Positions 5,230-20,000 of a DNA stretch of 20,000 nucleotides are shown piece by piece. Under the pieces are notes generated by a model. The model searched no databases. It saw only the letters and a list, made by a program, of their open reading frames with translations, and had not been told where the DNA came from. Where the stretch lies: the IMG/VR virus record IMGVR_UViG_3300011008_002732; one strand, given 5' to 3'. The first letter of the stretch is position 1. The number at the start of each line of letters is the position of its first letter. The position numbers and the translations under genes were made by a program. Source of the DNA: an uncultured virus (IMG/VR IMGVR_UViG_3300011008_002732) (lineage: Duplodnaviria > Heunggongvirae > Uroviricota > Caudoviricetes).

Positions 5230-5691
5230 TTAAAATAATCTTGACCTAATACGATTCCAATAATTCTTTTTCGAGTAGTTCCTACGCTTATCGTAGGCAT
5301 AGAGTTTTGAACGGTATGGGGGCAATTCCCTCTCTGGCTCATTCAGAATGGCAGCATCCATCAACTGTATCTCTGGCGGTTCTGGCATGGTCAGAACATG
5401 ACACGGCACAGCTTCCGTTACAACCTCAATGGCACGAAACACCTCTTCACTGACTTCAATATGCACGTCAACGGTCTGTTGCTCCACGTCAGGCGCAAGC
5501 TGCTCACTCTGGAACTCTAACCATGTGTCGATGTCAGAGCGAGAGACACGGCCCACACTCAACGCTTCTACAAACTGACACAAAGAATCATATCCAGTAC
5601 CAATGCGCTTTTTGAGCATTCCGTATCTGGCATAGATGGTGCCAACTTTGAATCTTATCGTATATTCCAGTTCTGCCATGTTGCCAGTCAA
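5230..5691 (-). CDS. Hypothetical protein
   Basis: 153 aa ORF; start uncertain (TTG 5691 or a downstream ATG). Confidence 0.7.
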   Translation of the reverse strand: MTGNMAELEYTIRFKVGTIYARYGMLKKRIGTGYDSLCQFVEALSVGRVSRSDIDTWLEFQSEQLAPDVEQQTVDVHIEVSEEVFRAIEVVTEAVPCHVLTMPEPPEIQLMDAAILNEPERELPPYRSKLYAYDKRRNYSKKNYWNRIRSRLF

Positions 5692-6272
5692 CTCAATTTG
5701 AACGTGAACACATAAACATAAGGGTTACTATCCCATGTTCCCTTACCGCTAACCTTATCAATGAGGGAAGAGAACGCATCCTTTGGGGTACGATACCATT
5801 TTGATTTCCCCTCTCCAATCCGATAGCCATATTTAGCCACGCCTTTAGGGTCATACATTATTCCCTCTGCCAGACAATCTTCATCCGAAATGTCCTGCAG
5901 ACGTTCAAAGTCAACTCCAGTTATCTTGATTCTGACAGGCATATATTCAGCCTTGACGAACATCTTATTTCCCCAACCTGGCGATTCAGTTATAAACTCA
6001 TCACCAACCATTTCAAAGTCTGAATCTGGGTAGATTTCTCTATACCTCTGCGCAACGGCAATAACCTCACCGACCTTGATAGGACACACTTTCAGAGCAA
6101 ACTCTTTCAACGGCAATTCACGTTGGGTTGGATTTCCGAGAATACCTGTCAACTCTTCTGCAATATCCCACTGCCGGACTACTCTTGACGCAATCCGTCT
6201 GGTCTTACTTTTTGCTCCATGAATGACAGATGCGGTCAAGCCACACCTGTCATTGAACATCATCTTTCTCAT
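5688..6272 (-). CDS. ASCH/PUA-like domain phage protein
   Basis: MFND...VIHGAKSKTRR at the N-terminus; ERLQDISDEDCLAEGI; WDSNPYVYVFTF at the C-terminus. Confidence 0.7.
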   Translation of the reverse strand: MRKMMFNDRCGLTASVIHGAKSKTRRIASRVVRQWDIAEELTGILGNPTQRELPLKEFALKVCPIKVGEVIAVAQRYREIYPDSDFEMVGDEFITESPGWGNKMFVKAEYMPVRIKITGVDFERLQDISDEDCLAEGIMYDPKGVAKYGYRIGEGKSKWYRTPKDAFSSLIDKVSGKGTWDSNPYVYVFTFKLS

Positions 6273-6544
6273 ACCTCCTTGATTTCAAAAACGTGGAACA
6301 CCAGTTTACCTTCATACATCTGGACGGTGCCGATGTAGTTTTCAATGATGCTGTCTTCGACAGGGTAGCCAGTTCCGGCTATGCGGAACCAGCGTTCCTC
6401 CAATGTCATTTTGTTTGGGTCAACAGCTGCCCAAAGGCAGGGTCTTCCGTTCTGAACTTGAACGGAAAGAACCCTTGCGCCCTTTGGCATCATGACTACC
6501 ACTTCGTCTTGAATGTCGAGCGGATATTTGTACACCCTTTTCAT
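6269..6544 (-). CDS. Conserved small phage protein
   Basis: VYKYPL...MPKGARVLSVQVQ...LWAAVD...GTG...YIGTVQ...LVFHVFE pattern; AGAAAGGAGG upstream. Confidence 0.75.
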   Translation of the reverse strand: MKRVYKYPLDIQDEVVVMMPKGARVLSVQVQNGRPCLWAAVDPNKMTLEERWFRIAGTGYPVEDSIIENYIGTVQMYEGKLVFHVFEIKEV

Positions 6545-6918
6545 TCCTCAGCCTCCTTTCTGTTGAATGGACCAACATAGTCAGCCCAAATCTGGATGAA
6601 CTGCTTACCGAAGTAGACGGCCAGTTCATCTGACTTGACAGCAAGGCGAGAGCCGATGNNNNNNNNNNNNNNNNNNNNNNNNNNNNNNNNNNNNNNNNNN
6701 NNNNNNNNNNNNNNNGAGATATTGGCAGTTCGGCTTAACTCATCATATTCCATCACTAACGGATTGTCGTCACCGAGTTCTCGTATGGCATCTTCAAAGG
6801 TCTTGATGCGCTCCATTACTGGGCGGTTGTCATTTACTTCCTCGTCGATGATGGTTAACACTCCATTGACCCATTCGGCTTTCTTGCCATCGGGTACTGC
6901 GATTGTTACTTCTTTCAT
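6541..6918 (-). CDS. Putative DGR target-like protein, interrupted by an assembly gap
   Basis: RIKTFEDA...[57 N]...IGSRLAVKSDELAVYFGKQFIQIWADY; GSRL is the typical end of a CLec-type variable repeat; true length unknown. Confidence 0.6.
   Translation of the reverse strand: MKEVTIAVPDGKKAEWVNGVLTIIDEEVNDNRPVMERIKTFEDAIRELGDDNPLVMEYDELSRTANIXXXXXXXXXXXXXXXXXXXXIGSRLAVKSDELAVYFGKQFIQIWADYVGPFNRKEAEE
6659..6715. other. Assembly gap (57 N)
   Basis: Run of n; the only ambiguous stretch in the window. Confidence 0.99.
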
Positions 6919-6944
6919 TGCTCTTTGTTGTTTAGGGGTTTAAC

Positions 6945-7172
6945 TTATAATTCCTGTGCTATTGCCATTATGGCCAACACCATCGGCAACTGTGTGTTAG
7001 CCTCCTTGTTGTCCATTTTGTCGAGGTCGATTAGGATGGGTTCCTCGGAAGCCTTCAGTCTTTCGACCACTGCCTCCAACTTCTTCTCGTCCTCCTCAGT
7101 GTCCGCATCGGCCATGAGGATGCCCTGTGCAAGCATCAGAGCCTTGTTCTTGATTTCAATACAAACTTTCAT
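6945..7172 (-). CDS. Small hypothetical protein
   Basis: 75 aa in the operon. Confidence 0.7.
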   Translation of the reverse strand: MKVCIEIKNKALMLAQGILMADADTEEDEKKLEAVVERLKASEEPILIDLDKMDNKEANTQLPMVLAIMAIAQEL

Positions 7173-7184
7173 AATCTCACTGAT

Positions 7185-8021
7185 TTATTTGACTTCAAAT
7201 TCTATCTGTCCGAATTTCTTCTGTATAATCTTCATCGACGTGACCACATGGCCCTCAAACTTGAACTTGCAGGGAGCAGCATAAGCCTCCATGCAATCAC
7301 GCAGCGACTCATTGATGGGGTTGGTATAGACAGGAACCTCTCCTCCAAGTTTCTCCGACATCAGAGCGTCCATGCGTCTGTTGTGCTCCTTCAACATCTG
7401 GAGCATCACCATTGCTATGCAGGCATCCGTCCGCATGTCGAGGTATGGGTCTGTAGCCCACTGCTTCTTCAGTTCGTTGTTCAACGAGTAGAACAGGAGC
7501 ATGAAGTCCGTCTGGCATTTCTTCACGAACTCATCGGCCGATTTCTCCATCTTCTCGATGTGCGCCCTGTCGAGGTCTTTCCTGCAGTCACGGAGATAGT
7601 TCTCGCGCAACTCCTTGACAGTCCGGCTCAGTTTCTTCGTCTCTGATATTCTGTTGTCAATGCCAAACCTCACAACCTTGAAGGCGAAGTACCAGGCCAC
7701 TTCTGTGATGATGAGAGGAACAAAGGCAATATTCATGTTCTCCTCGAAGGTGAAGGTCTCTAACATCGTCATGGTGCCGTCATGCACCTGACGCTTGAAC
7801 TGATCCTCCGTGACTGGCACTCCAGGAATAGCGGAAACCTTGGCCGGCTTCTTCTCCTCTTCCTTGCAACCGAAATGGGTCTTGCGGTTGAGCATCTTGC
7901 CATCCATCTTATAGGCGATGTTCAAATACCACTCGCCCTTTGCAATGGGCTTGCCGCATTTTGCGCAGGTATGCTCCTTCCTCGCCTTGGGGGTGGTGAT
8001 ATGGATAACTTTCTCCTTCAT
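7185..8021 (-). CDS. Hypothetical protein with N-terminal zinc-finger-like motif
   Basis: ARKEHTCAKCGKPIAKGE...HFGC followed by a helical domain. Confidence 0.8.
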   Translation of the reverse strand: MKEKVIHITTPKARKEHTCAKCGKPIAKGEWYLNIAYKMDGKMLNRKTHFGCKEEEKKPAKVSAIPGVPVTEDQFKRQVHDGTMTMLETFTFEENMNIAFVPLIITEVAWYFAFKVVRFGIDNRISETKKLSRTVKELRENYLRDCRKDLDRAHIEKMEKSADEFVKKCQTDFMLLFYSLNNELKKQWATDPYLDMRTDACIAMVMLQMLKEHNRRMDALMSEKLGGEVPVYTNPINESLRDCMEAYAAPCKFKFEGHVVTSMKIIQKKFGQIEFEVK

Positions 8022-8269
8022 TTCCTCTTCATCATCTTGTTAAAGAACATCTGTGTGTCCTCTTCGGAAGCCTTGTCGCAGATTTCAACTGGAACTGCAA
8101 AGGCTTCTGCATCTTCCGCATCATTGAAAGCAAGTTCTCCGTCAGTCAAGGCGACTGCAAGGAGGTATGCCTCATCACCAAACTTGTCTGTTGTGTAGCC
8201 ACCCACCATTCCGAGGTGACTTTTGATACCGTCAAGGTAAACAATCGTGCCGAGTGCTTCTTTTTTCAT
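8018..8269 (-). CDS. Small hypothetical protein
   Basis: 83 aa, AAGAGCA-ATG, first gene after promoter 8311-8350. Confidence 0.75.
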   Translation of the reverse strand: MKKEALGTIVYLDGIKSHLGMVGGYTTDKFGDEAYLLAVALTDGELAFNDAEDAEAFAVPVEICDKASEEDTQMFFNKMMKRK

Positions 8270-8310
8270 TGCTCTTCTTCTTTAATTCGTTACTAAATGA
8301 TGTTTCTTAT

Positions 8311-8350
8311 ATTTGATGTAAAGGTAGTCATTTTTTTGCTTTTGACCAAA
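8311..8350 (-). promoter_or_regulatory. Bacteroidetes-type promoter, copy 2
   Basis: TTTG (8350-8347), 20 nt, TACCTTTA (8326-8319); 29 bp identical to 1653-1681. Confidence 0.75.
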
Positions 8351-8396
8351 GGAAAAACCATGTATTTTCAGCGTAACATTCTGATTTTCAATAAGT

Positions 8397-9143
8397 TTAA
8401 CTTTTACTTTCAGAGATCTGCTCCACATGCTGTTTCACATACTCTTCGGGGGTAACGATCGTATGCTTCATCAGAGTCTTACGCATCGTTTCCTGCGTTG
8501 ACCTGTCGAGGTTGTAAACGTTATGGATAATCTCATTGCACATTTTCACAAGAGACTCCACAGACAAGGGCGAAGGCTGTCCCTTCTTCTTTGGTCTTGC
8601 AAGGGCCTTGGCAGGGTTCTCCAGCAATTCCTTGGTGAAGTTCTTCGGTTCGCCATGCATCTTCACATACTCCTCGTAGGTGATGGCATTCTTCCTATCC
8701 CTCTCACGCTGCTCGTCTCGAAGCTGCCGTTCCCTCTCATCGTAGGCATAGCAGCGTTCCTTGCAGAACTCCCTCAGAGACGTAGTGATAATCAGAGGGT
8801 CTATGCTTCCGTAGAACCTGCCGTACCTCCCGGACTTGAACCGATGGAAGAATAGCATCAGTTCAGACACCTTCAGATAACAGAAGTCCGTTGCTATCAC
8901 GCTGGCACATTCCTCCAGCGGTTTGCCCTGCAACTTCTCCCTTGCACCGCAATACTCCGAGAGGTTGTAGAGTTGGGGAACCAGCCACATCGTGGCGGTC
9001 ATTTCACCGTAGGTCATGTTCAGTTCCGAAAGGACAGGGGCATCACCGAAGTAGCACAGTTCCGCGTCCTTGCACACCTTCATCTGCAGGTCTGGATTGA
9101 ACAGCGTAAGGAACTTCGTCCTGTCACCGTATCGGGTTATCAT
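8397..9143 (-). CDS. Putative helicase loader/inhibitor-like protein (DUF6633-like)
   Basis: Follows the initiator; YLKVSELMLFFHRFKSGRYGRFYGSIDP motif; start could be 9143 or as far as 9227. Confidence 0.6.
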   Translation of the reverse strand: MITRYGDRTKFLTLFNPDLQMKVCKDAELCYFGDAPVLSELNMTYGEMTATMWLVPQLYNLSEYCGAREKLQGKPLEECASVIATDFCYLKVSELMLFFHRFKSGRYGRFYGSIDPLIITTSLREFCKERCYAYDERERQLRDEQRERDRKNAITYEEYVKMHGEPKNFTKELLENPAKALARPKKKGQPSPLSVESLVKMCNEIIHNVYNLDRSTQETMRKTLMKHTIVTPEEYVKQHVEQISESKS

Positions 9144-10107
9144 CGCTTCCTTCTTGCGCTGCAAGTCGGGCGATAATGCTGGCTGCGTCTGCGGCACGAG
9201 CCTCCTTGTTAGACTTATTAACCCCATTGCTATTTCCGTTTGTGATAGCAGCCCTTGCCTGGGCCACCACCTCGTTATACTTTCCGTTTATACTTGTCAC
9301 GCTGAAGTTCTTCAGCAGCCACGGGTCTGTGATGGAGTTGAGGAATGCCGTCAATGCTTTCAGCACGTCCTCTTCCTCCACGCTCATGCCCTTCTGCTTG
9401 CGTGAGTGGATAATCTTCTTCGTGAGTGCATCCATTGCTGCCGCGTCCTTTGCCTGCCAGTAGTACACCCCGCCATCGAACAAGTCCGAATACCGCTTCT
9501 CGAAGATTTCCCTGCCTTTGGTGATAAGGGGGTTGACCTCCTTCTTCTTTGAGGGTTTCTTCTCCACCGGCTTCTGATCCTGCGCGTCAAGCCGTTCCTT
9601 CAGTTCGGACAACTGTTCTTGCATCTGTAGAAGGAGTTTCATGGGTTCCCCACCCAAGCCGACGTCGCAATTTTGCGACTCGGCCTTTATATTATTATCT
9701 TCTTCTTTTAGTCTTCTTATAAGATGCTCGTTTGCCTGCCCGTTTGGTGTCTCATTTGCTGACTCGTTTGTTGACTCGTTTTGCTGATACTTCTCATAGT
9801 TTATGATTGAGATACAGCCGATTACATTGTTTTTCTGTACGCTCACTCTCTTGTCCGACACGAGGTACGAGATAAACCTCTCTACCTTTCCGCGACTCCA
9901 TTTCCACCGCTCGGCCAGTTCAAGGGTGCCCTTATAGACACATCCTCTCTTGGCCTTCACTCTGATACCTCTGACAAAAAACTCGCTCGGGGCAAAGTAC
10001 GCTAACAGGATGAGGTCACACCAAGCCTGCCATTTCGTGAACGGCTCCTTGAGATAGAGGGGGTCGTTCAGCGACGAGCGGTACAACTTGATATATCCTG
10101 TTGCCAT
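9124..10107 (-). CDS. Phage replication initiator / replisome organizer
   Basis: MATGYIKLYR...FTKWQAWCDLILLA...LAERWKWSRGKVERFI...ISIINYEKYQ winged-helix N-terminus; internal iterons; start reassigned to ATG 10107. Confidence 0.8.
   Translation of the reverse strand: MATGYIKLYRSSLNDPLYLKEPFTKWQAWCDLILLAYFAPSEFFVRGIRVKAKRGCVYKGTLELAERWKWSRGKVERFISYLVSDKRVSVQKNNVIGCISIINYEKYQQNESTNESANETPNGQANEHLIRRLKEEDNNIKAESQNCDVGLGGEPMKLLLQMQEQLSELKERLDAQDQKPVEKKPSKKKEVNPLITKGREIFEKRYSDLFDGGVYYWQAKDAAAMDALTKKIIHSRKQKGMSVEEEDVLKALTAFLNSITDPWLLKNFSVTSINGKYNEVVAQARAAITNGNSNGVNKSNKEARAADAASIIARLAAQEGSDDNPIR
9664..9782. repeat. Putative replication origin: five 12-bp-period iterons, AT-rich tract and inverted repeat
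   Basis: gctcgtttg 9726, gcccgtttg 9738, tctcatttg 9750, actcgtttg 9762, actcgtttt 9774; AT-rich 9686-9724; gtcgcaa-tt-ttgcgac 9664-9679. Confidence 0.7.
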
Positions 10108-10121
10108 ATTAACAAAACATA

Positions 10122-10229
10122 GGTCCCAAACAGCCAACCTCTCTGCGTTCGCAGGTGACATTAGAAGTCGGTCTGATTGGAACCCGTAATTTCTCTTGAA
10201 CACTATCTGCAAATGTCACTAAGCAGATA
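10122..10229 (-). ncRNA. Structured RNA leader with probable pseudoknot upstream of the initiator
   Basis: 7-bp hairpin with loop GUGACAUU; about 20-bp stem with G-U pairs enclosing AAUGUCAC and a CUGC-GAAC-GCAG hairpin. Confidence 0.65.
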
Positions 10230-10244
10230 TTTTGATTTCTTGTG

Positions 10245-10272
10245 CAAAGGTACAAAAAATGATTGAAACAAA
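10245..10272 (-). promoter_or_regulatory. Bacteroidetes-type promoter for the replication genes
   Basis: Consensus -7 box TACCTTTG (10252-10245); upstream TTTG at shorter than usual spacing (16 nt). Confidence 0.65.
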
Positions 10273-10313
10273 CGCACATTTTCACGAAAAATCGCATGGT
10301 TGCTAACATTTTT

Positions 10314-10808
10314 TCAGATTTTCACTGTTATACCTTTCTCTGCACTCAGTCTTTTCACCTCATTGGTGAAGTAGTCTATCTTTTCCTGTAACTCGAAGTC
10401 CAGCCAGTGCTTCTGTGACCTGGCCATCATTTCAAGCCTGTTTATCCTGTCGAGTCCAATCTTCTCGACCAAGTTCCTGCGGTAGCCTATCAAGTGGTCT
10501 GCACTAGCCCTGTTGCAGGCACGGCATTCCATGTGGCAGTTGTCCGGCTCCCACCGCGTCGCCATGTGGGTGCGCGAATGGTAGTGGCCGCAATCGCCCT
10601 GCTCGAAACGCTTTATCTGTCCGCAACTAATACATCTGAAGCATCCGTTGGGCATTGCGTCTCTGAGGCGAATGTACGCGCTGAACACCTTGTCAAGTTT
10701 CTTGCTGAGGTCGGCCGGCTTCCTGCCAGCCTGCTTCTTGGCCTTCGGGAAGAGGTCTTGCTCTGCAGACTTCTTCTTTGGCTTGCGTTTCATGTACCAC
10801 GGGAACAT
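10314..10808 (-). CDS. ninG: NinG/Rap-like recombination endonuclease
   Basis: LDKVFSAYIRLRD...CISCG...DCGHYHSR...TRWEPDNCHMECRACN. Confidence 0.85.
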   Translation of the reverse strand: MFPWYMKRKPKKKSAEQDLFPKAKKQAGRKPADLSKKLDKVFSAYIRLRDAMPNGCFRCISCGQIKRFEQGDCGHYHSRTHMATRWEPDNCHMECRACNRASADHLIGYRRNLVEKIGLDRINRLEMMARSQKHWLDFELQEKIDYFTNEVKRLSAEKGITVKI

Positions 10809-10809
10809 A

Positions 10810-11142
10810 CTACTCGAACTTTGTTTCGACAATAATCAGCGGCTCCATGGATAGCAGGAACTTAACCTCACAACCGATGGCGACGGCCACATTGAAATCC
10901 TGTGTGCATCCTGCGCTGTGGTTCCACTTGGGCAGCAGGAGGATGGTGTCACACTCACAGAGCATCTTGAAATCGACTCGCATATGCTCATGGGTGGTGG
11001 CATCCTTCGGCAATCCGTTGAACATGGGGTTGAACACTTCATATCCTTGCTTCTCCAACATCTGCTGGATGGTGAGGAATGTTTGCTTCCTCTCGGAATA
11101 GTCATAATGGCTTATAGGACCGCTGATATAAATTCTCTTCAC
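10810..11142 (-). CDS. DUF4406 / nucleoside deoxyribosyltransferase-like protein
   Basis: IYISGPIS...GYEVFNP...MRVDFKMLCECDTILLLPKWNHSAGC. Confidence 0.8.
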   Translation of the reverse strand: MKRIYISGPISHYDYSERKQTFLTIQQMLEKQGYEVFNPMFNGLPKDATTHEHMRVDFKMLCECDTILLLPKWNHSAGCTQDFNVAVAIGCEVKFLLSMEPLIIVETKFE

Positions 11143-11147
11143 CTTCT

Positions 11148-12323
11148 TTAGAAATTGATATTAGTAAGCTGTCTGCCTCTCGATGTAACAATCCATTTGG
11201 AAGAACGGGGGGGGCACTCGATACGCAGGTCAGCAACATTCCCGAACCTTCTGAACGACCCTCCAAGGTCAATGACCCATCCTTCCTTGCCCTTGCACGG
11301 GCGAATGGCTCTTCCCACCATCTGATAGTACAGGGCCAGCGACTTCGTTGGTCTTCCAAGGATAATCGTATCTAACTCCGGGTAGTCGAAGCCTGTTGTG
11401 AGGGTTCCCACGTTAGCCACGACCTTGATGCGCCCGGCCTTGAAGTTCTCAAGTATCGCCTCTCGCTCCTTCTTCGGTGTCTCACCTGTCACGATTGCGG
11501 ACTTGATGCCCTTCACACCCAGTTTCTCAACCAGTTCCCCTGCCTCCTCGATGAAGCGCGTGAACACCAGCACACCATTCCTCGGGACACCGCTCTTCGG
11601 CTTTAGCACTCTGAGCGTGGTGGTGGTCAGTTTGTCATAGAAACCGCTTCGCTCATACTCTTCCTTCAGACTCTTCTCGTCATAGTCGGCACCAGTAGAG
11701 TTGCTTTTCACCATTTCGAGGTTGATGGCCGTGAGGTCATAATAACTCAAGTCGGCAAGGAAGCCCTTGGCCAATAGTTCTCCGACTTGGCAGTAGTACA
11801 GCACCCTGTCGAATATCCTCGGACGTGTGCGAGTGAGGAACTTCAGCATCGACATACCATCCGAACCTCTGCCGAGGCGATATGGGGTTGCAGTTAAACC
11901 TACCACCTTCCTTGGAACGGCATGCAGAAACTTCTCATACTGACCCTCCTTGCTATTTACTCCATGGCATTCATCAATCATAACGTTTCTGAAATGGGCG
12001 AAGTCATCCATATGGTTCATCACGCTTCCTATGGTGGCAAAGGTAATCCTATTTATCTCCTTGCGACCTACCGACGCAGAATATATAGAACAGTCCCAGC
12101 AACCGTAACTCTGCAATTTGGCGAAGTTCTGCTCCAGTATTTCCTTGGAAGGTTGCAGGATAAGCAACGGGCCATCAATCCTGTGTGCTATGTCAGCAAT
12201 CACCAGGCTCTTGCCCGCGCCAGTAGGGAGGATGAGTAACCCGTTACTCTCCCTCTTACTGGCGAAGGCCTCCACGGCCGCGTCACTCGCTGCTTTCTGA
12301 TATGACCTAAGAACGTACCCCAT
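11148..12323 (-). CDS. SF2 DEAD/DEAH-box helicase (RadD/YejH-like)
   Basis: LRSYQ, PTGAGKS, DECH, GLTATP, LTTGFD, QMVGRAIR. Confidence 0.93.
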   Translation of the reverse strand: MGYVLRSYQKAASDAAVEAFASKRESNGLLILPTGAGKSLVIADIAHRIDGPLLILQPSKEILEQNFAKLQSYGCWDCSIYSASVGRKEINRITFATIGSVMNHMDDFAHFRNVMIDECHGVNSKEGQYEKFLHAVPRKVVGLTATPYRLGRGSDGMSMLKFLTRTRPRIFDRVLYYCQVGELLAKGFLADLSYYDLTAINLEMVKSNSTGADYDEKSLKEEYERSGFYDKLTTTTLRVLKPKSGVPRNGVLVFTRFIEEAGELVEKLGVKGIKSAIVTGETPKKEREAILENFKAGRIKVVANVGTLTTGFDYPELDTIILGRPTKSLALYYQMVGRAIRPCKGKEGWVIDLGGSFRRFGNVADLRIECPPRSSKWIVTSRGRQLTNINF

Positions 12324-13048
12324 TACTCGTCCTCCTCATCGTCATTCTCCCAAGGGTCTGTAGCATCGTCGGGGTTGTCACCTCCTTCGTCACCAAAGGG
12401 GAGTTCGTTCCCATCGTTGTCCTTGCCTTCATCGTTCTTCTCCTCCGGCTTCGGTGCCTCTGGGAACTCCAGCCCGAACAACTCCAGCATGGCCTCTCGG
12501 TTCTTCTCCTCGTTGGCCCACAACTCATGATGGTCATACACCTCGAAAGCCTTGGCCAGCACGAACACCTTCTTGTTCTTGTCGTAGGTGTAGATGGCAT
12601 AGTAGCCAGCAAGGGCGATGCAGAAGGTCTCTTTCGACGAGAGGGCGACCTCGCGCGTTCCGGCCTTTACCTCGGCAGCATAATTGGCCACTTCGGCAAG
12701 GATGGAGTCGTATGCCTGTTCGGCACGCTTCTTCATGGCCTTGATTTCCTCCAGCGTTTCCTCAAGGTTGAGTTTGCGCTTGGGCACCTCGTTCTCCTGC
12801 ATCACGCAGTATTCCTCTCGGATATTGCGGATTTCAAACTCGTCCAGCTTGCGCATGACGGTCTCACCGCTGGGGAAGGTGGCGACGAAGTTATCGCCCA
12901 CGAACTTGATAACCTCCGCTGAGTTCTTGAACTTCTTGCCGCCCTTGGCCTTTGAGAAATCCAGTTCTGCGGGGAACAACTCTTTCACATAGTCGGAGAG
13001 TACATACTCCACTTCTTTAGGCTCGTAGCCTTTCAAATCTGCGTACAT
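12323..13048 (-). CDS. Hypothetical protein with coiled coil and acidic tail
   Basis: Likely start MYADLKG (13048); tail ...DGNELPFGDEGGD...ENDDEEDE. Confidence 0.8.
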   Translation of the reverse strand: MYADLKGYEPKEVEYVLSDYVKELFPAELDFSKAKGGKKFKNSAEVIKFVGDNFVATFPSGETVMRKLDEFEIRNIREEYCVMQENEVPKRKLNLEETLEEIKAMKKRAEQAYDSILAEVANYAAEVKAGTREVALSSKETFCIALAGYYAIYTYDKNKKVFVLAKAFEVYDHHELWANEEKNREAMLELFGLEFPEAPKPEEKNDEGKDNDGNELPFGDEGGDNPDDATDPWENDDEEDE

Positions 13049-13071
13049 TTGATTACAATTTAGATGGTGAA

Positions 13072-13494
13072 TTACTTGTTGCGGATGCGCTCCCACAGGG
13101 AACGGCTCTCCAGTCTCTTGATAGTCTCTCTGAGGTCGTCAATGACCTTCTCACGCTCTGCGGCCTGTTTGATGAGGTTGTCAAGCTGCTCCTTCTTCTG
13201 CTTCTCCAGTTCCTCGTCAAAGAGGCCCTGCTTGAAGTGCTCCTCGACCTCGGCCTTCACGTCGTCAAAGCCGGCATACTCCTTCTTGTCGCTGACAAGG
13301 AAAGGAATAAAGGGGTGCTTCTTTACGCTGATGCAGCGCACCTTGCCCTCCTTGGCCATCTTCTCAATTTCGGCCTCATGGTCTTCCTTGACCTTGGCCA
13401 ACTCCTGTTCAAGAGCATCGATACGTGCGCTCTTGCTGCTGATGCTGCTCTGAAGAGCATCATACGTTGTCAGTTCTAATCTAACTTCTTGCAT
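13072..13494 (-). CDS. Coiled-coil hypothetical protein
   Basis: 140 aa, heptad-rich, ends RSLWERIRNK. Confidence 0.75.
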   Translation of the reverse strand: MQEVRLELTTYDALQSSISSKSARIDALEQELAKVKEDHEAEIEKMAKEGKVRCISVKKHPFIPFLVSDKKEYAGFDDVKAEVEEHFKQGLFDEELEKQKKEQLDNLIKQAAEREKVIDDLRETIKRLESRSLWERIRNK

Positions 13495-13514
13495 TTTACT
13501 TAAACTTTATAGGG

Positions 13515-13970
13515 TTACAAAAATTCTGCATACGCTTCCATCTGTCTCTGGGCCTCGAACAAGGCGTCAGTCTCATTGGGGGATGGAATGTAGAGACCTG
13601 CCACGGCACTTGACCAGTTGCGAAACCGTTCTATCGCCTGTGTCATTTCCGCTGTGTCAAGGTCTCTGCTGCTCCTTAGCCTTACCACCTCCTGGCCCCG
13701 CTTGTTCACCCTCTTGACCTCGAAAATGTCCCTGTTCAGTTTCCGCTTGAAGATGTCCTGCTTCACTTCGTCTATCGAATATCCGAACTCGCTTGCATAG
13801 TAGCCGAGGCATACATGCAGGTAGGCGTTCTGACTGGACGAACGTTGCCTGTGCTTCTTCTTCACCTCGACGATGCCGAGGGGAGCCTTGATGCACTCCT
13901 GGTACACCTTGTTGCAGTAGTCCTTGAACTGCTGGGCTTCGTAGGGGTTGTGGAGGTTGAATACTGCCAT
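13515..13970 (-). CDS. NinB-like recombination protein
   Basis: RSSSQNAYLH...GYSIDEVK...RSSRDLDTAEMTQAIE. Confidence 0.7.
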   Translation of the reverse strand: MAVFNLHNPYEAQQFKDYCNKVYQECIKAPLGIVEVKKKHRQRSSSQNAYLHVCLGYYASEFGYSIDEVKQDIFKRKLNRDIFEVKRVNKRGQEVVRLRSSRDLDTAEMTQAIERFRNWSSAVAGLYIPSPNETDALFEAQRQMEAYAEFL

Positions 13971-13972
13971 AC

Positions 13973-14200
13973 CTATCTCAGAATATAGTTGGCGAAATGC
14001 ACCGGACGGCCAGTGATGCGGCTCGTCGATGTCACGGTCTCAGTAACGATGTCATGACCCTCGTCGCGCAAGTCCTTGATACGTTGCGCAAGTGCATAGC
14101 ATCCGTATTCTCTCAGAGCCGTCAGAGGCTCGATGCTCCCGAAGTTCCTCAGATGAGCAAGTATCATGCTCTTCTGTGTAGGCTTACCGTCTTGTTCCAT
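13973..14200 (-). CDS. Small helix-turn-helix protein (HTH_39-like)
   Basis: TQKSMILAHLRNFGSIEPLTALREYGCYALAQRIKDLRDEGHDI; start reassigned to ATG 14200. Confidence 0.8.
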   Translation of the reverse strand: MEQDGKPTQKSMILAHLRNFGSIEPLTALREYGCYALAQRIKDLRDEGHDIVTETVTSTSRITGRPVHFANYILR

Positions 14201-14204
14201 TGTA

Positions 14205-14684
14205 CTAAAATGGTAAATCATCGGGGTTGTCAACTGGCATACCGTTCTCGTCCACCTGCGGAGGGAACGGCTGCTGTGCTGGCTGTGGAGCATACTGAGG
14301 CTGCTGTGCCGGCTGCTGGTTCGTGGGAGCCGTGCCCGGCTGATAGCCGTTCTGTTGCTGCTGTTGCTGTGCAAGCACAATCTTGAAAGCATTGATGGTG
14401 GTGAAATACTTTATCTCGCCAGTCTGCTGGTCGGGGTACTTCGCACCCTTCAGAGAGAAATCAACCGTCACCTTCTGACCGATCTCGAACTGGTCGATGA
14501 GTGCGCAGTTGTTACCGCCCAACTCGAACTTGGGATGGTTCTCCCACGGTTCACCCGTATCGGGGTTGTACCGAGTGCAGTCAAGGACGAACTCACGTCT
14601 GTAGAACGGCTGGCCACCATTCTTTGGAGTGCGGGCGATGGTCTCGCCCACTAACTCCAACTTACCTGTTATCTGAAATGCCAT
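14205..14684 (-). CDS. DUF3127 single-stranded DNA-binding protein
   Basis: MAFQITGK...RREFVL...GQKVTVDFSLKG...YFTTINAFKI, Q/P-rich linker, DDLPF tail. Confidence 0.85.
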   Translation of the reverse strand: MAFQITGKLELVGETIARTPKNGGQPFYRREFVLDCTRYNPDTGEPWENHPKFELGGNNCALIDQFEIGQKVTVDFSLKGAKYPDQQTGEIKYFTTINAFKIVLAQQQQQQNGYQPGTAPTNQQPAQQPQYAPQPAQQPFPPQVDENGMPVDNPDDLPF

Positions 14685-15618
14685 TTCCGAAGATTTTCTC
14701 GTTAGTAATCTTGTCTCTGTTGTTCTCCAGGAACTCAATCAAGCGTTCACACTGCTGTACGAGCATCATGCGAGCCTGCTCATGGTCGTAGGTGTAAACC
14801 TCCTTGTACTGAGTGCCTGTGATGAGAGGTGTCCTGCCCGAACCGCCCTTCAGAACATAGATGGTGTACTCGAATGACTGCACCTCGTTCATCATGTCCG
14901 ACTCTATGAGCGTGAATGGGTAGGCGTAACGCTGCCACTTCTTCTGAAAGTCGCCAAAGGTGTACCGCTTCGTCGTCTTCGCATCGAACACCTTCATCAT
15001 TCTGAGGTAGTCGATATATCCGTGCAGTTCCACGACACCCTTTGACGTTTCGAGGTTGGCTTTCGTGTAGTACTGGCAGATCGAGCCCTTGAAGTAGTTC
15101 GCTGCCTCCAGACAGAAGTCCTTGTCGAAGAAGAACTCAAAGCCCTCGATGCCCACATAGATGAATGACACTCCAATCTTCGTGAACTCCTCGATGCTCT
15201 GCTCCGGCTTCAGTTCCTCTGGTATCACGTTCTTCCCGAGGACATCAGCCTCATACGACATCTTCTTCAGACGTGCCTCGTACAAGTCCTCGCCATTCCG
15301 TATCGTCTTGATGATAATACCTTCGTTCGAGGGCTTGCACTTCTTCACCAGGCAGTCCACAATCTCGTTGAACGCTGTGCCCTTGCTTGCCGCCTCGGAT
15401 GGCGGTGTGGGCACCTTGTTCACCTTGTCGATGAACTCCTGCTTCAGAAGAGCGTCCACTTCCTCCTCGGAGTAGTGGAACGTCTCTTCTGTCTCATTCC
15501 AGTTGAGGTGCCATGCGCCTGTCTCGTCTTGGTAGAAGAACTCCTCCACCTTGGTATCGACCATGCGCTGAAAGGCATCCAGCAGGGATGGTGAGAAAGC
15601 ATAATTAGGCTGCTGCAT
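14662..15618 (-). CDS. PD-(D/E)XK-like phage exonuclease
   Basis: SPSLL...AASKGTAFN...GYIDYL...VFDAKTT...WQRYAY; lies between the ATPase and the SSB. Confidence 0.7.
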   Translation of the reverse strand: MQQPNYAFSPSLLDAFQRMVDTKVEEFFYQDETGAWHLNWNETEETFHYSEEEVDALLKQEFIDKVNKVPTPPSEAASKGTAFNEIVDCLVKKCKPSNEGIIIKTIRNGEDLYEARLKKMSYEADVLGKNVIPEELKPEQSIEEFTKIGVSFIYVGIEGFEFFFDKDFCLEAANYFKGSICQYYTKANLETSKGVVELHGYIDYLRMMKVFDAKTTKRYTFGDFQKKWQRYAYPFTLIESDMMNEVQSFEYTIYVLKGGSGRTPLITGTQYKEVYTYDHEQARMMLVQQCERLIEFLENNRDKITNEKIFGNGISDNR

Positions 15619-16552
15619 CTTCGTAGGTCTTAGACTTGGCATTCCACTTCAGCTTCAGTTCCTCGACCTTGTTCTTGAACAGGTCACGGGCGCGAACCTT
15701 GCTGTCCCAAATAATCTCGGCCTGGGCGATATTCTTGGCGAACTCGTTGGCTGACTGCGCATCGGTGATGCAAGCGATAGCCTGCTCGATCTCCTCCAGC
15801 AGCTCATTGTAGCGCTTGCGCGTCTCTTCAATCTTCTTGACGTTGGCCTCGTAGTAGCCGAACACCTTCTGAAGGGTGTCGTTCTGCTGAGTCACGTTGC
15901 CGTTGGCATCGACAATGACAGGTATCTTCTGCCATGCAGGGAGGTTGCAGGTGTTCTTGGCATAGAACTTCTCCTGCGGAGTCCAGTACACGGTCCGGTC
16001 GGGGCCGACAGCCTGCACATATCCTACAAGGTCAAGCTCCTTCATGAGGTCGCCTGCGGATGAACCGCCAATCTCCGGACGGACAATCTTCGTCTCTCCA
16101 TCCTTCTCCTCTCGCTCATGTGCTACGAAGACGATGTTCTTGCCCATCATGGCCACTTCTCTGAGGAAGTTTTGGAACATCACCTTACGGGCGCCATAGC
16201 CCTTCAGACTGAGAGAGCCGTCACGCTGCTTCATCTTTGAGTCGTTGCGCATGATGTAGTCGGACATGAAATCCAACATCTTGCCTGCGGTGTCGATAAC
16301 GATGGTCTTGCATTCGACCTCGCCACCCTTCAACTCTTCGAGGGCCTGGAGTGCTTCCTCCCAACTCTTCACTTGCAGCGTCGGACACTGGAACGCTACG
16401 TTTACTCGCTGCACACCTCCGTCGAAGTCGAACAGGACGGGATTGGGTGCACTCAGTGCCATTGTTGACTTGCCGATACCCGGCTGACCATAGACCAGCA
16501 TCTTGATGGTGGTCACGAAATCTAACTCGTTCGGTTTCTTAAATAAACTCAT
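15605..16552 (-). CDS. AAA_24 / Sak4-like ATPase recombinase
   Basis: YGQPGIGKST Walker A, FDFDGG, IVIDT Walker B, FVAHE. Confidence 0.85.
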   Translation of the reverse strand: MSLFKKPNELDFVTTIKMLVYGQPGIGKSTMALSAPNPVLFDFDGGVQRVNVAFQCPTLQVKSWEEALQALEELKGGEVECKTIVIDTAGKMLDFMSDYIMRNDSKMKQRDGSLSLKGYGARKVMFQNFLREVAMMGKNIVFVAHEREEKDGETKIVRPEIGGSSAGDLMKELDLVGYVQAVGPDRTVYWTPQEKFYAKNTCNLPAWQKIPVIVDANGNVTQQNDTLQKVFGYYEANVKKIEETRKRYNELLEEIEQAIACITDAQSANEFAKNIAQAEIIWDSKVRARDLFKNKVEELKLKWNAKSKTYEDAAA

Positions 16553-16584
16553 TGCTCTTGAATTTGGATTGATTAAACATATAG

Positions 16585-17136
16585 TTAACTAAACAAATGG
16601 TTCTTGTTCGCATACTGGATAAACTCGCTCTTCTCATGGATGCCCAGCTTGGCATACACCGACTTGACGTGGTTCTTTATCGTGAAAGGAGAGAGGTACA
16701 TTCGCTCTGCCACCTCTTCGTTGGTGCATCCGTCATAGATGAGCCGCATCACCTCCAGTTCCTTCTTCGAGAGCTGGGTGTTGAACTTCGGCATGCAGAC
16801 GATCCCCTCAAACGGACATTCGCCTCTGAGGGGACACTGCACCTTCTCGAACGCAAAGGCTGAGGATGGTTTGTAGTCCAGTTCTGCCGTGTCAAGCCTT
16901 CCGAAGTTGCACTTGCAGAACCTGCGGACAATCAAGAAGCGGTAGTAGGACACCCGCATCGCGCTCTTCTGATAGCACTCGCTCAAAGCCTTGTAAGCCT
17001 CTGGGTAGCACTCCATCATCCTTTCGATAAGCATGGCGATGATGTCTTCTTTCGACTCGTCCAGTCTCTCGTTCCTTCCGTCAGAGGTGATGTACCATAC
17101 CTCTCCGTCAATCGTGTAGAACTCCAAACCTTCCAT
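16585..17136 (-). CDS. LuxR/GerE-family transcriptional regulator
   Basis: C-terminal LSKKELEVMRLIYDGCTNEEVAERMYLSPFTIKNHVKSVYAKLG; Cys cluster CPLRGECPFEGIVC; start MEGLEF. Confidence 0.88.
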   Translation of the reverse strand: MEGLEFYTIDGEVWYITSDGRNERLDESKEDIIAMLIERMMECYPEAYKALSECYQKSAMRVSYYRFLIVRRFCKCNFGRLDTAELDYKPSSAFAFEKVQCPLRGECPFEGIVCMPKFNTQLSKKELEVMRLIYDGCTNEEVAERMYLSPFTIKNHVKSVYAKLGIHEKSEFIQYANKNHLFS

Positions 17137-17137
17137 A

Positions 17138-17344
17138 TCAGTCTTCCCACAAATCTTCGACTGCAATGCCCGTCTTCCGTGACAGAAGTTCGACATGGCT
17201 CTTGTTCTGCGGCTTCATCCCGTAGATAACCCAGTTACGGACGGTCGCTGCCGCAACTCCAGCCTCGATGGCCACCTCATTGATGAAGTCAGTCTTAGGA
17301 TGGCTTGCGTCTGGTAATTGCGAATAATAGCCCTTGAGGGTCAT
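17138..17344 (-). CDS. Cro-like HTH regulator
   Basis: FINEVAIEAGVAAATVRNWV...LLSRKTGIAVEDLW; divergent from the CI-like gene; start 17344 or 17386. Confidence 0.75.
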   Translation of the reverse strand: MTLKGYYSQLPDASHPKTDFINEVAIEAGVAAATVRNWVIYGMKPQNKSHVELLSRKTGIAVEDLWED

Positions 17345-17368
17345 TTTTCGCAGATTTTTCTCGTTTTC

Positions 17369-17456
17369 TTTGGCGATTTCGTACATTTTTACCAATTTTG
17401 CACTGTTATTTATAAAAGATAGTGCAAAGGTAGCAATTATAATTAGAATATTCAAA
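17369..17456. promoter_or_regulatory. Lysis/lysogeny switch region
   Basis: Minus: TTTG (17456-17453), 20 nt, TACCTTTG (17432-17425). Plus: TTTG (17369), 20 nt, CAATTTTG (17393-17400). Inverted repeat tttgcact...agtgcaaa between them. Confidence 0.65.
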
Positions 17457-17500
17457 GAAAATCCTAAGAAAATACTATTTTGCAAGAATTTTTAACTTTT

Positions 17501-17893
17501 ATGGGTATAAAAGACAGGTTGTATGCTTTTTTGGAGGCAAAGAAACTCAAGCCTTCCGCCTTTGAACGCAAGTGCGGTCTCTCTAACGGCTTCTGTAGCA
17601 AGGTAAACGACAATATAACTGATGGGTCAATTCTACTTATACAGAATGGCTTCCCCGAGTTGAACATCAACTGGCTCAAGACTGGTTTCGGGCAGATGCT
17701 TAACGAACAGAGATTAGAATATCCTAACCCCGATGAAGGAGGCAACATGCTCGCCATGGTGCGTATGATGCAGGAATTCATACAACTCGGCAAGAAGAAC
17801 GCTGATGCCAACCTCATGAACGCTGAGGCGAACAAGCTCAATGCGCAGAATCTGGAAAGGCTAATCACACTCCTGGAGCATAAATTAGACTGA
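17501..17893 (+). CDS. CI-like HTH repressor without a peptidase domain
   Basis: IKDRLYAFLEAKKLKPSAFERKCGLSNGF...FPELNINWLKTGFGQM. Confidence 0.82.
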   Translation: MGIKDRLYAFLEAKKLKPSAFERKCGLSNGFCSKVNDNITDGSILLIQNGFPELNINWLKTGFGQMLNEQRLEYPNPDEGGNMLAMVRMMQEFIQLGKKNADANLMNAEANKLNAQNLERLITLLEHKLD

Positions 17894-17895
17894 CT

Positions 17896-18216
17896 ATGGC
17901 TATGATAATCTCTCCCGAAGGGGTGGCGATCACCGCACGCTTTTTCAAAGTCATAGACATCCTCTCCGAGGCAAGACACCTCAGAGGGCTTCAGACATTC
18001 ACGGCCAGGTATAATCTGAACAGACGGAACCTGATGCACGTCAAGGAGAGGCCGAACAATGCCGTCCTTAAACCCGAAGTGCTGGCGCACCTTGTACGCG
18101 ACTACGGCGTTTCTGGAACGTGGCTTCTGACAGGGGAGGGGTCTGTGTTCCAAGACGGCACCGATAAACCCGAGCCTGTGAAGTGGAGAAACAAGCCGAG
18201 GGCTGACAAGCAGTAG
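17896..18216 (+). CDS. Second CI-like HTH protein
   Basis: RGLQTFTARYNLNRRNL...YGVSGTWLLTGEGSVF. Confidence 0.7.
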   Translation: MAMIISPEGVAITARFFKVIDILSEARHLRGLQTFTARYNLNRRNLMHVKERPNNAVLKPEVLAHLVRDYGVSGTWLLTGEGSVFQDGTDKPEPVKWRNKPRADKQ

Positions 18217-18217
18217 T

Positions 18218-18394
18218 TCATCCATATCTTCTTTTAGCCTCCTCCCTCGCCCATTCATAGTTTCGTGTCAAGTATCGTCTCACGGTGGAAGCGGAACAGC
18301 CGAACAGTTCTCCTATCTTCCAATATGCCAATCTTCCGCAGACATGCAGCACGAAGAATGAAACATAATCATCTGACTCCAATTTCCTATACAT
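18218..18394 (-). CDS. Small HTH protein (58 aa; not in ORF track)
   Basis: MYRKLESDDY...LAYWKIGELFGCSASTVRRYL...RRYG-stop. Confidence 0.65.
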   Translation of the reverse strand: MYRKLESDDYVSFFVLHVCGRLAYWKIGELFGCSASTVRRYLTRNYEWAREEAKRRYG

Positions 18395-18406
18395 ATTTCT
18401 TGTTCA

Positions 18407-19381
18407 TTATGTCGGGCCTCCACACTTGCGAAATGCACCTGCAGGAAGTTTCCACTTCTTGTTGTCCGGCACCAGTATCGAAGCAGAATATTCGTAAGAT
18501 GTGGCCAGACGTGATATTTCTTCTGTGATAGCCTCGTATGGAACACCTCTCTTGATAAGCGTCGCAAGATCGATGTCACGCTTCATTGTGTAGCCGAAAT
18601 CTTTCTCGAAGGCTATCAGACGTTGTGCTTGCTGATGGCTTACGCAAGCGGCACTCGCAAACTGGTGGCAGTTGCCGAAGATGCAGAACTTACATGAGCA
18701 CCGTCCAAATCCCATGAAATAACAGGGGTGAGGGCGTACACGATATTTCTCCAGCATATCCCATATCTGCTGTTCCTTCCAATCACGAATAGGACGAAAG
18801 CGGTCTATATGTCTGAAGAATTTCTTTCCGCTGCGGAGGTCGGCCCTATCCGGCTCCAGTATAGCATAGTTTGCCCGTTGCTTACTCTCTTCTCCTCGTT
18901 CACCCGACAAAATCAGTGTGCGGATATTGCGGAATCGTTTGTCGTTTCGTAGAACCGTGGCACATACGTCTATCTTCAAATAAGCGCTGCACCATCTTAC
19001 CCGTAAGTCTGGTGACGGTTGCGGAAACTTCCTTCGCGTCGATACCTTTCCTTTACCACTGTCTATGATGTAAACATCGCCACTGGCACTCTCGTAGTGT
19101 ACTGGTGCCGTCCTGTCATTCTCACGGGTCATTTCTCGCATAAACCCTCCCTCCTTCCACTGATAGAGTACCGGAATTCCGAAGGCATCACCAACTTTCT
19201 GACAATAGTCTGGAGTTACCTCCCAGTCAAAGAGAGTTGCCATCCTTCCATCAATGTCCTGATGCCATAGTTCTATCTTCTCTTTGGGTACACCGTTATC
19301 AAGGAGAAAAAGGAGGCAGGCAGTGCTATCCTTTCCTCCAGAGAAACTGACAATATACTTGTCGTAACTATACAAATCCAT
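18407..19381 (-). CDS. PAPS reductase family (PP-loop) protein
   Basis: VSFSGGKDS, RWCSAYLKID, GERGEESKQRA, RPIRDW, HPCY, RCSCKFCIF. Confidence 0.88.
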   Translation of the reverse strand: MDLYSYDKYIVSFSGGKDSTACLLFLLDNGVPKEKIELWHQDIDGRMATLFDWEVTPDYCQKVGDAFGIPVLYQWKEGGFMREMTRENDRTAPVHYESASGDVYIIDSGKGKVSTRRKFPQPSPDLRVRWCSAYLKIDVCATVLRNDKRFRNIRTLILSGERGEESKQRANYAILEPDRADLRSGKKFFRHIDRFRPIRDWKEQQIWDMLEKYRVRPHPCYFMGFGRCSCKFCIFGNCHQFASAACVSHQQAQRLIAFEKDFGYTMKRDIDLATLIKRGVPYEAITEEISRLATSYEYSASILVPDNKKWKLPAGAFRKCGGPT

Positions 19382-19385
19382 AGTC

Positions 19386-19589
19386 TTACATGCTTGCTTT
19401 CCAAAACTTCACTATATCCAAGCCCGTGTAGAACTTCCGGCCATTCGACTTGCGATGCTTGCAGTCGATGCCCGTAGGCCCTACATTCGTATGCCTCCGC
19501 AGGGTGTTCCTATGGATGCCCAAAATCTCTGCAGCCTCGCCTATACTGAACCTTGCTGTAGGCGATACTCTTGGCTCTTCGTTTACCAT
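19386..19589 (-). CDS. Excisionase/MerR-like HTH protein
   Basis: FSIGEAAEILGIHRNTLRRH...RKFYTGLDIVKFW. Confidence 0.75.
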   Translation of the reverse strand: MVNEEPRVSPTARFSIGEAAEILGIHRNTLRRHTNVGPTGIDCKHRKSNGRKFYTGLDIVKFWKASM

Positions 19590-19590
19590 A

Positions 19591-19788
19591 TCAGTCAACC
19601 CGCATTTCTATTGGCTTGCCCTTCAGCGACGGCCGCCTCTCTATTACCCTTGCATAGACATCTTCCAGGTCCAGTTTTAACAGCGGACAATACTGATACC
19701 GTAACGTGAACACAAACTTGTCGTGAAGCATGACGTCCACAAACAGAACCTTGTTCTTTAAGGTGGGAGGAGTAGGAATTGCTCTCAT
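19591..19788 (-). CDS. Small hypothetical phage protein
   Basis: MRAIPTPP...FVDVMLHDKFVFTLRYQYCPL...RRPSLK; TGATG overlap. Confidence 0.7.
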   Translation of the reverse strand: MRAIPTPPTLKNKVLFVDVMLHDKFVFTLRYQYCPLLKLDLEDVYARVIERRPSLKGKPIEMRVD

Positions 19789-20000
19789 CACTCGTCCTCC
19801 ATTGGTACATACTTCATAACACACCAAGCAGCGACTGCGAAATTCGTCACCACTACGACAGCGACAAGTAGATTCTCGCCGCCTAAGCACAATCCCACAA
19901 ATGACAGACTGAACCAAGCCGATATGAGTTTCTGCTTGACAGTCATCTTGTCCCAATGTACTGACTGCTTCCAAAGGGAAAACAAACTTGTTTCTTTCAT
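19788..20000 (-). CDS. Small membrane protein (start may lie outside the window)
   Basis: Two hydrophobic segments. Confidence 0.65.
   Translation of the reverse strand: MKETSLFSLWKQSVHWDKMTVKQKLISAWFSLSFVGLCLGGENLLVAVVVVTNFAVAAWCVMKYVPMEDE

Follow-up and report, generated by a model that had tools for sequence, protein, structure and literature searches.

What places the only assembly gap of a long stretch of phage DNA inside one small early gene? The stretch, hereafter the window, comprises 20,000 nucleotides (nt) of the uncultured Caudoviricetes virus IMGVR_UViG_3300011008_002732, and the gene lies on its minus strand at 6541–6918. Diversity-generating retroelements (DGRs) are best known for altering phage tail fibres. 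An earlier note on this DNA proposed that the gene is a DGR target remote from its reverse transcriptase (RT) and template repeat (TR), and that the gap stops at the edge of a variable repeat (VR). It is very probable that the gene encodes a soluble protein of about 192 amino acids (aa) with a C-terminal DGR VR, and that the gap arose from at least two VR versions in the sample. Apart from a hairpin and an intracellular role, both taken up below, the interpretation in that note is supported. The features on which the argument turns are these.

6541–6918, minus strand: phrog_11581-family gene, the putative second (remote) DGR target (open reading frame (ORF), translation and profile match).
6716–6918, minus strand: N-terminal residues 1–67, a conserved domain (beta-hairpin and helices) and the start of a variable linker (alignment and AlphaFold 2 (AF2) models).
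6659–6715: scaffold gap, 57 N for about 258 nt, made up of about 165 nt of invariant coding sequence and a variable VR core of roughly 93 nt (contigs).
6645–6658, minus strand: invariant 3' end of the VR, resembling an initiation of mutagenic homing (IMH) site and coding ..I-G-S-R; 6658 is the last shared base before the alleles diverge.
6640–6644, minus strand: VR-specific flank TTGCT, the point where VR copies and TR diverge.

The run of 57 N at 6659–6715 is the sole N run in the window and lies inside the target gene. On the sense strand it gives way directly to C-ATC-GGC-TCT-CGC-CTT (6658–6643), confirming the first observation of the earlier note, a lone gap that ends at an IGSRL edge. 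The ORF stays in frame through the N run and yields 67 residues, 20 X and 38 residues beginning IGSRLAVKS. This gapped protein matched the profile of phrog_11581 (length 200) in two stretches (E 1.3e-16), and with four family alignments the match extends over both its N- and C-terminal parts. phrog_11581 is a phage family of about 190–200 aa whose function is not annotated. No Pfam match was obtained for the protein, and none at E ≤ 1 for the family. The protein has 518 database homologs, and a relative is encoded in 370/417 candidate viral stretches and 97/111 genome stretches. Since the best 120 of the 518 homologs are 179–212 aa long and the window holds 105 real residues, far more than 19 codons are missing from the gap.

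Logan contigs of four public runs were placed on 6200–7200 (contigs, not raw reads). Runs X1–X3 represent one sample, the probable source of the window, and X4 comes from another study. In both X1 and X2 the contig covering 6200–6658 stops exactly at 6658. Two alternative 153-nt contigs overlap its last 30 nt (6629–6658) and extend 123 nt further. From the opposite side, a 264-nt contig covers 6716–6814 and reaches 165 unique letters into the gap. The gap is therefore about 258 nt (165 + 123 − 30). A 21,213-nt contig of X4 joins 6658 to 6716 with 258 letters between them, which bears out the suspicion that the missing segment is longer than 57 nt. With this bridging contig the target gene probably measures 579 nt (203 + 258 + 118) or 192 aa. 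The gap belongs to the source scaffold, because G001, the nearest record and an IMG/VR 'provirus' of 13,283 nt, starts at 6718. It shares its first 455 nt with window 6718–7172 at 100% identity, begins 2 nt past the gap in frame with the partial target gene, and is as long as the stretch from 6718 to 20000. Deliberate masking of letters was rejected as the origin of the N run on the strength of the 258 letters in the bridging contig and the starting point of G001. When viral_contigs and metagenome_contigs were scanned by exact pattern for copies of the C-side flank that span the gap, each gave 0 matches.

On the C-terminal side, the assembly breaks at a bubble of two arms, about 93 nt long. 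The 153-nt contigs have depths of 10.3/16.9 and 7.4/11.4 and agree at 0.88 over their first 30 letters. Flank depth in X1 is even (22.9 and 22.6 either side of the gap), and the summed depth of the two arms, 27.2, is close to it. The flanks of both arms are identical, with 0 other letters in X1–X3. Within the 30-letter arm stretch shown, four letters distinguish the X1 consensus from the X3 contig. Read by hand, these are positions 1–2 of three codons (Leu/His, Phe/Tyr and Leu/Thr) within ..W-S-x-S-S-A-x-I-G-S-R-L, and the three codons align to Asn codons in the TR of Bacteroides phage LoVEphage, a relative described below. Two or more VR versions with identical flanks were thus present in the sample, and hypervariability within the population is visible as the two contigs that branch at 6658 in X1 and X2. 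The gap thus ends at the VR boundary, as proposed: variation stops at 6658, where the two alternative contigs start.

The pairing of this VR with a template was examined in relatives. In G002 (61.8 kb, 100% complete), which shares a single gene with the window, the target, the target segment is one of three repeats of about 115 nt. The AAC-rich copy adjoins the RT and differs from the two others only at its adenines (19/19 and 22/22). The closest syntenic relative is G007 (52 kb); 23 window ORF products match its locus L101 in the same order, mostly at 80–97% aa identity. G007 encodes tape-measure, Dit-like and tail proteins, among them one tail protein of 453 aa (phrog_5302) that has VR1 close to its C-terminus; the TR and a 474-aa RT come next. 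Its homolog of the target gene (phrog_11581, E 6.5e-48) lies 29 kb from the RT and TR, and 12/12 mismatches to the TR are at template adenines. The corresponding counts are 11/13 in G009, 19/19 substitutions plus a 3-nt indel in G008, and 17/17 in LoVEphage, whose TR stands beside its RT. Two minor features of G007 are recorded here. In this region (L181 13474–15246), the sole small ORF between target 1 and the RT, at 13474–13788, overlaps the TR and was matched by neither Pfam nor NCBIfam, and residues 357–429 of the 474-aa RT weakly match phrog_19665.

The survey was extended to 50 further family-bearing viral records alongside six earlier RT-bearing ones. An RT match was found in 25/50 of the further records, and in 16/25 of those at least 90% complete. 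Of the 31 RT-bearing records, 27 carry a template-like copy of the target's C-terminal ~110 nt within about 1.5 kb of the RT, and 4 have no copy inside the RT locus. In 25/27 there are at least 7 mismatches with at least 80% of them at A; summed over the 27 records, 375/384 mismatches are at template adenines. The proposal of a remote DGR target is therefore borne out by the family, as is the proposal that VR differences should fall at TR adenines, which was tested in these relatives. The target lies outside the structural module and far from the RT and TR, at 9.2–46 kb from the RT (median 29 kb). An RT and TR outside a 20-kb window are therefore expected, and for the same reason a second copy was seen in only 16/160 loci cut at ±10 kb.

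Variation within the family follows the TR as well. An alignment of 136 members has an entropy of 3.1 bits at those 13 VR codons whose first or second position is A in the G007 TR; the remaining 22 VR codons have 1.27 bits, and 151 columns outside the VR have 1.26 bits. In the segment before ..SARLAVKS / ..IGSRLA, invariant residues alternate with fully variable ones, in the pattern LWLFGGxSxxGSxCGLAxAxSxxAWSxSxAxx. We also compared 56 locus pairs with 95% identity or more across some 2.5 kb surrounding the target gene. They showed 813 differences in the 127-nt VR core versus 3708 in the remaining ~2430 nt. Among the closest informative pairs, L114/L118 has 18 differences in the VR core and 7 outside, and L116/L118 has 18 and 8; between near-identical relatives the core is 25–50 times denser in differences than its flanks. 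Three nearly identical pairs have 0–2 VR differences.

The 3' boundary of the VR has the same arrangement in the window as in these genomes. At 6645–6657 the window agrees with the 3' end of the LoVEphage TR in all 13 nt, and TTGCT comes next. Both VRs of G007, G008, G009 and LoVEphage then continue TTGC, whereas their template continues TAAC or ATAC. G002 is an exception, with CTTC after its VRs and AAAC after its template. The window therefore holds an IMH-like boundary, an invariant 3' end shared with the TR followed by a VR-specific flank.

These results suggest the following course of events. A single TR adjoining the RT at the end of the tail-gene block would be copied into complementary DNA (cDNA) with errors at adenines. 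The cDNA would then overwrite two VRs, one in the tail protein next to the TR and the other in the target gene tens of kilobases away. The two VRs have in common their 5' homology and a 3' end rich in GC (..CGGCTC(T)CGCC); in most of the relatives examined TTGC comes next, a sequence absent from the TR at this point. With two or more VR versions present in the sample, the assembly graph would have forked at 6658, and the scaffolder would have put 57 N in place of about 258 nt. In the protein, the conserved N-terminal domain would dock to a constant partner while the hypervariable surface would meet a changing one.

The earlier note had also assigned a 3' hairpin to the VR; in BPP-1 a hairpin is said to lie just downstream of the VR. 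The element in question is as follows.

6595–6630: perfect 9-bp inverted repeat with an 18-nt spacer, GATGAACTG at 6595–6603 and CAGTTCATC at 6622–6630, within D-E-L and Q-F-I codons.

The repeat is perfect and lies where it had been placed, and it is the sole perfect 9-bp repeat with a 3–30 nt loop in the window. Block shuffles gave a mean of 1.97 per 20 kb, so the count is not beyond chance. Among 51 unique family sequences all 9 positions pair in the window alone; the other 50 pair at 4–8/9, with the mismatches at synonymous positions and no compensatory changes. The repeat is absent in LoVEphage, whose target is clearly rewritten, and the sequence downstream of the tail-protein VRs is unrelated to it. 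A hairpin serving as a DGR recognition element was therefore rejected. From the alignment we judge the repeat to be a coding coincidence, because the reverse complements GAACTG and CAGTTC encode E-L and Q-F, which are conserved.

What the protein does was approached through gene position, localization signals and fold. The window is a phage early region with every plausible gene on the minus strand. The genes bordering the target are listed here.

6269–6544, minus strand: DUF7352 / phrog_3848 gene, the downstream neighbour, with a 4-nt overlap with the target stop (ORF and profile searches).
5688–6272, minus strand: phrog_874 gene (profile search).
8397–16552, minus strand: upstream replication/recombination block with Sak4-like, NinB, SNF2/DEAD helicase, NinG, DnaD-like loader and DUF6633 genes (profile matches).

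The target sits between the DnaD-like/DUF6633 genes and DUF7352, and at the same position in G007. Further genes of the window encode a helix-turn-helix protein, a PAPS-reductase-like protein, a LuxR/sigma-like regulator, an HNH endonuclease and many small ORFs. In the window, G007, LoVEphage and Versailles alike the target is in the recombination/replication block and not in the tail block, in agreement with the claim that it lies among early accessory genes. The protein was also said to lack a signal peptide, and a crude hydropathy test gave no sign of a signal peptide, lipoprotein box or membrane helix. Among 120 members, 0 have Cys in the first 30 residues, and peak hydropathy over 19 residues is 1.14 at the median and 1.72 at most.

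The family protein consists, in order, of about 50 N-terminal residues, a variable linker, a conserved helix (..AYLKLRIIAAALNEGW..), the VR and about 35 helical residues. Residues 1–49 of the target are 90–94% identical to many clusters. A C-type lectin fold is the one expected of DGR targets. Two AF2 models (mean predicted local distance difference test (pLDDT) scores 71.9 and 80.1) have strands at 12–17 and 20–25, and both predict an N-terminal beta-hairpin with short helices; the VR part is of low confidence in both. For the two models, Foldseek against the PDB gave best E values of 4.1 and 1.3 and no solved C-type lectin, and a wide VIA-align search gave best Z scores of 4.1 and 3.3 and no named fold. 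A sequence profile of the family found nothing below E 0.14 in the PDB. With no significant match in these searches or in Pfam, a C-type lectin fold of the family, predicted models included, is unconfirmed. The ESM Atlas, which contains no structure of the protein, returned unnamed viral clusters only, and phmmer with the G007 tail target gave nothing significant. BFVD gave 5 matches at E ≤ 0.001, all uncharacterised gut-phage proteins. Two side observations concern the fold. BFVD matches include proteins of crAss-like viruses (ctDAq1, E 2.8e-4; ctXt06 and cr128_1 weaker), and by these model comparisons the fold may reach beyond the phages sampled here. Profile positions 61–98, the conserved helix, gave a non-significant E of 0.64 to the C-terminal domain of an ABC-three-component system (PDB 9ny1/9nxx).

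The protein is most likely a non-virion ligand binder. A possible, if doubtful, alternative is that the protein acts as an adhesin, either associated with the virion or released at lysis, and forms an accessory receptor-binding module that is docked by its N-terminal domain and encoded outside the tail block. Its VR, and hence the chemistry of the binding surface, is common with the tail protein of the same TR (29/43 residues identical), it has a weak match to the phrog_5302 'tail protein', and its very conserved N-terminal domain suits docking to a constant phage part. However, the likeness to the co-templated tail protein is confined to that 43-residue VR, and the gene occurs in the recombination/replication blocks of four unrelated backbones. 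The member in Bacteroides phage Versailles (L214 6977–7558; ON453897.1 10181–10762) is annotated 'tail protein' and lies between NinB and a replisome organiser. The label is an HHpred-against-PHROGs annotation and probably reflects the VR likeness to phrog_5302. None of 21 candidates was a longer protein with the N-terminal domain fused into it, which is weak evidence. An intracellular counter-defence role, as the earlier note had suggested, is unproven and drawn from gene position. Its fuller form is speculative and rather unlikely as it stands: a DGR-diversified intracellular binder, for example a decoy or inhibitor of fast-changing host defence proteins, built on a non-C-lectin scaffold, carried as a single-gene module across unrelated Bacteroidota phage backbones and wired to the tail-protein template.

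Does the phage of the window still diversify this gene? None of the 38 minus-strand ORF products of the window matches the Pfam RT family. The RTs of 3 relatives gave weak tblastn matches only (best E 0.004), and the template repeats of five relatives matched the 20-kb window over only 13 nt, at the gap edge. These searches agree with the earlier note, which had found no RT or TR in the window. An alternative is that this phage has lost its RT and TR, leaving an orphan or fossil target, and that the two VR versions belong to co-resident strains. Besides the window itself, no RT was matched in 9/25 viral records that carry the family and are at least 90% complete, and some family members may be orphan targets. 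The nine records are G015, G029, G033, G035, G042, G043, G051, G052 and G057 (loci L108, L134, L138, L142, L152, L153, L165, L166 and L171, respectively), and they may hold orphan or fossil DGR targets. One of them, G015 (95% complete), has in L108 a second VR-like copy about 10 kb off with 70% identity, and its mismatches are not adenine-specific. Other phages also branch inside the target gene in the same runs: contigs of 6,476 nt in X1 and 3,039 nt in X2 share just the 30 nt at 6785–6814 with the window and then diverge. The 5' part of the target gene is thus common to related phages, which part ways further inside it, in keeping with 49 N-terminal residues that are highly conserved and a variable linker after them. 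Conversely, G007, the closest syntenic relative, has both RT and TR and exclusively adenine mismatches. The arm flanks are identical throughout X1–X3, and the visible allele differences are at positions 1–2 of codons that are Asn in a relative's TR. We consider loss of the RT and TR improbable, and infer that the phage would carry its own pair outside the window.

Several points weigh against an active remote DGR target. The window is without RT or TR, so that the phage's own DGR is not seen, and nine near-complete records with the family gave no RT match. X4 closes the gap with a single contig. The two alleles could in principle be two co-resident strains, 30 letters per arm being visible and in contigs only. 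No Avd-like gene was recognised beside the G007 RT, and no wider search was made. Foldseek, as noted, recovered no solved C-type lectin. A plain assembly or scaffolding artefact or a low-coverage hole with no link to hypervariation, to which the gap size (57, off by about 200 nt) and the N-terminal contig end at 6716 (without a matching graph branch in the Logan contigs) would point, is highly improbable given the even depth on both sides, an arm depth sum near that of the flank, a C-side break at the exact start base of two alternative contigs and the coincidence of that break with a VR end defined independently in relatives.

Distant homologs in genomes of Flavobacteriia and Chitinophagia (Elizabethkingia, Chitinophagaceae, Apibacter and Chryseobacterium) are without the N-terminal domain of the phage proteins and occur as tandem copies of 135–173 aa directly upstream of a template and RT (L087 9467–11642 and L097 9959–11943; also L088, L090, L093, L096 and L098). 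From 10/12 to 16/16 of their mismatches are at template adenines.

Two further observations concern other parts of the window. At many loci with almost nothing else in common with the window (among them L114, L140, L131, L117, L177, L155, L130, L028 and L108), the phrog_874 gene is again found a few kb or less from the target, and it could be a linked module or a partner. A 47-nt direct repeat, 89% identical, is found at 1646–1692 and 8304–8350. One copy is just upstream of the minus-strand gene 8018–8269 and the other at the start of 1441–1704; the two copies may act as a common promoter or operator in the early region. A promoter and terminator scan of 5600–8500 gave results not above shuffles, the scan not covering Bacteroidota promoters, and blastn of window 5688–8021 against GenBank phages gave no match.

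The arrangement itself is already published. In its accessible text, Benler et al. 2021 (PMC8008677) describes a distal non-structural DGR target in Quimbyvirus, near methyltransferases and a tRNA ligase, and calls both Quimbyvirus DGR targets C-type lectin proteins. The LoVEphage protein QVQ57199.1 (MW660583.1 33613–34197) matches residues 38–191 of family protein P0003 with 41–44% identity (E 2e-19), and its gene lies among methyltransferases and RtcB, exactly the Quimbyvirus neighbourhood. LoVEphage and Quimbyvirus are each given as about 95% identical to the B. dorei prophage CP011531.1 in the available portions of PMC8525569 and PMC8008677, and LoVEphage appears to be the same phage as Quimbyvirus. 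The LoVEphage paper, in the portion available, mentions the RT and not this target (PMC8525569). The window is a further case on a different backbone. Quimbyvirus/LoVEphage and the window family share the protein family, a VR paired with a TR beside the RT, and a two-target layout in which a tail-fibre-like protein next to TR and RT is joined by a small distant non-structural gene. They differ in that the window target accompanies Sak4, NinB, NinG, an SNF2-type helicase and a DnaD-like loader, whereas the Quimbyvirus target is in a methyltransferase/RtcB island. They differ also in that the C-type lectin assignment made for Quimbyvirus (PMC8008677, accessible text) is not confirmed for the window family.

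Beyond the Quimbyvirus case, no description of the phrog_11581 family was found in the literature. The DGR survey of Roux et al. 2021 (PMC8144416) could not, according to its available text, detect remote targets. PMC12694917 deals with DGR targets of about 2000 aa and not a small one, the accessible part of PMC6199706 (Hankyphage) describes no second or remote target, and PMC12823448 treats DGRs by citation only. What is added here is the breadth of the family, the distance statistics, the signature of a gap at the VR end and the finding that a C-type lectin fold is not recovered. The Quimbyvirus/LoVEphage case falls within a very large family that occurs across many unrelated backbones of gut phages. 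Because its targets are 9–46 kb from the RT, surveys of RT neighbourhoods miss them. Their trace in short-read assemblies is a scaffold gap that stops at the invariant VR 3' end. A second target among early genes implies that hyper-diversification in phages extends to a protein of another role, which may lie in intracellular conflict between phage and host. Cultured relatives (BI-TP1, PV4-TP1 and LoVEphage-like prophages) make its function testable.

Two other systems allow comparison. The family resembles the BPP-1 DGR, which acts on the Mtd tail fibre, in adenine-specific transfer from TR to VR and in an invariant GC-rich 3' end common to both repeats, followed by differing sequence. Unlike that of BPP-1, its target is not a tail fibre and is 9–46 kb from the RT, about 35 residues follow the VR so that it is not at the extreme C-terminus, and no conserved GC-rich short-loop hairpin of the BPP-1 type comes after the VR. 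The tentaclins offer another parallel, since one gut-phage DGR there serves two functionally different targets, according to the available text of Baykov et al. 2023 (PMC10743442), as in the present family. Unlike the tentaclins, the family protein is about 195 aa long, carries its VR near the C-terminus, and is without immunoglobulin domains or any Pfam match.

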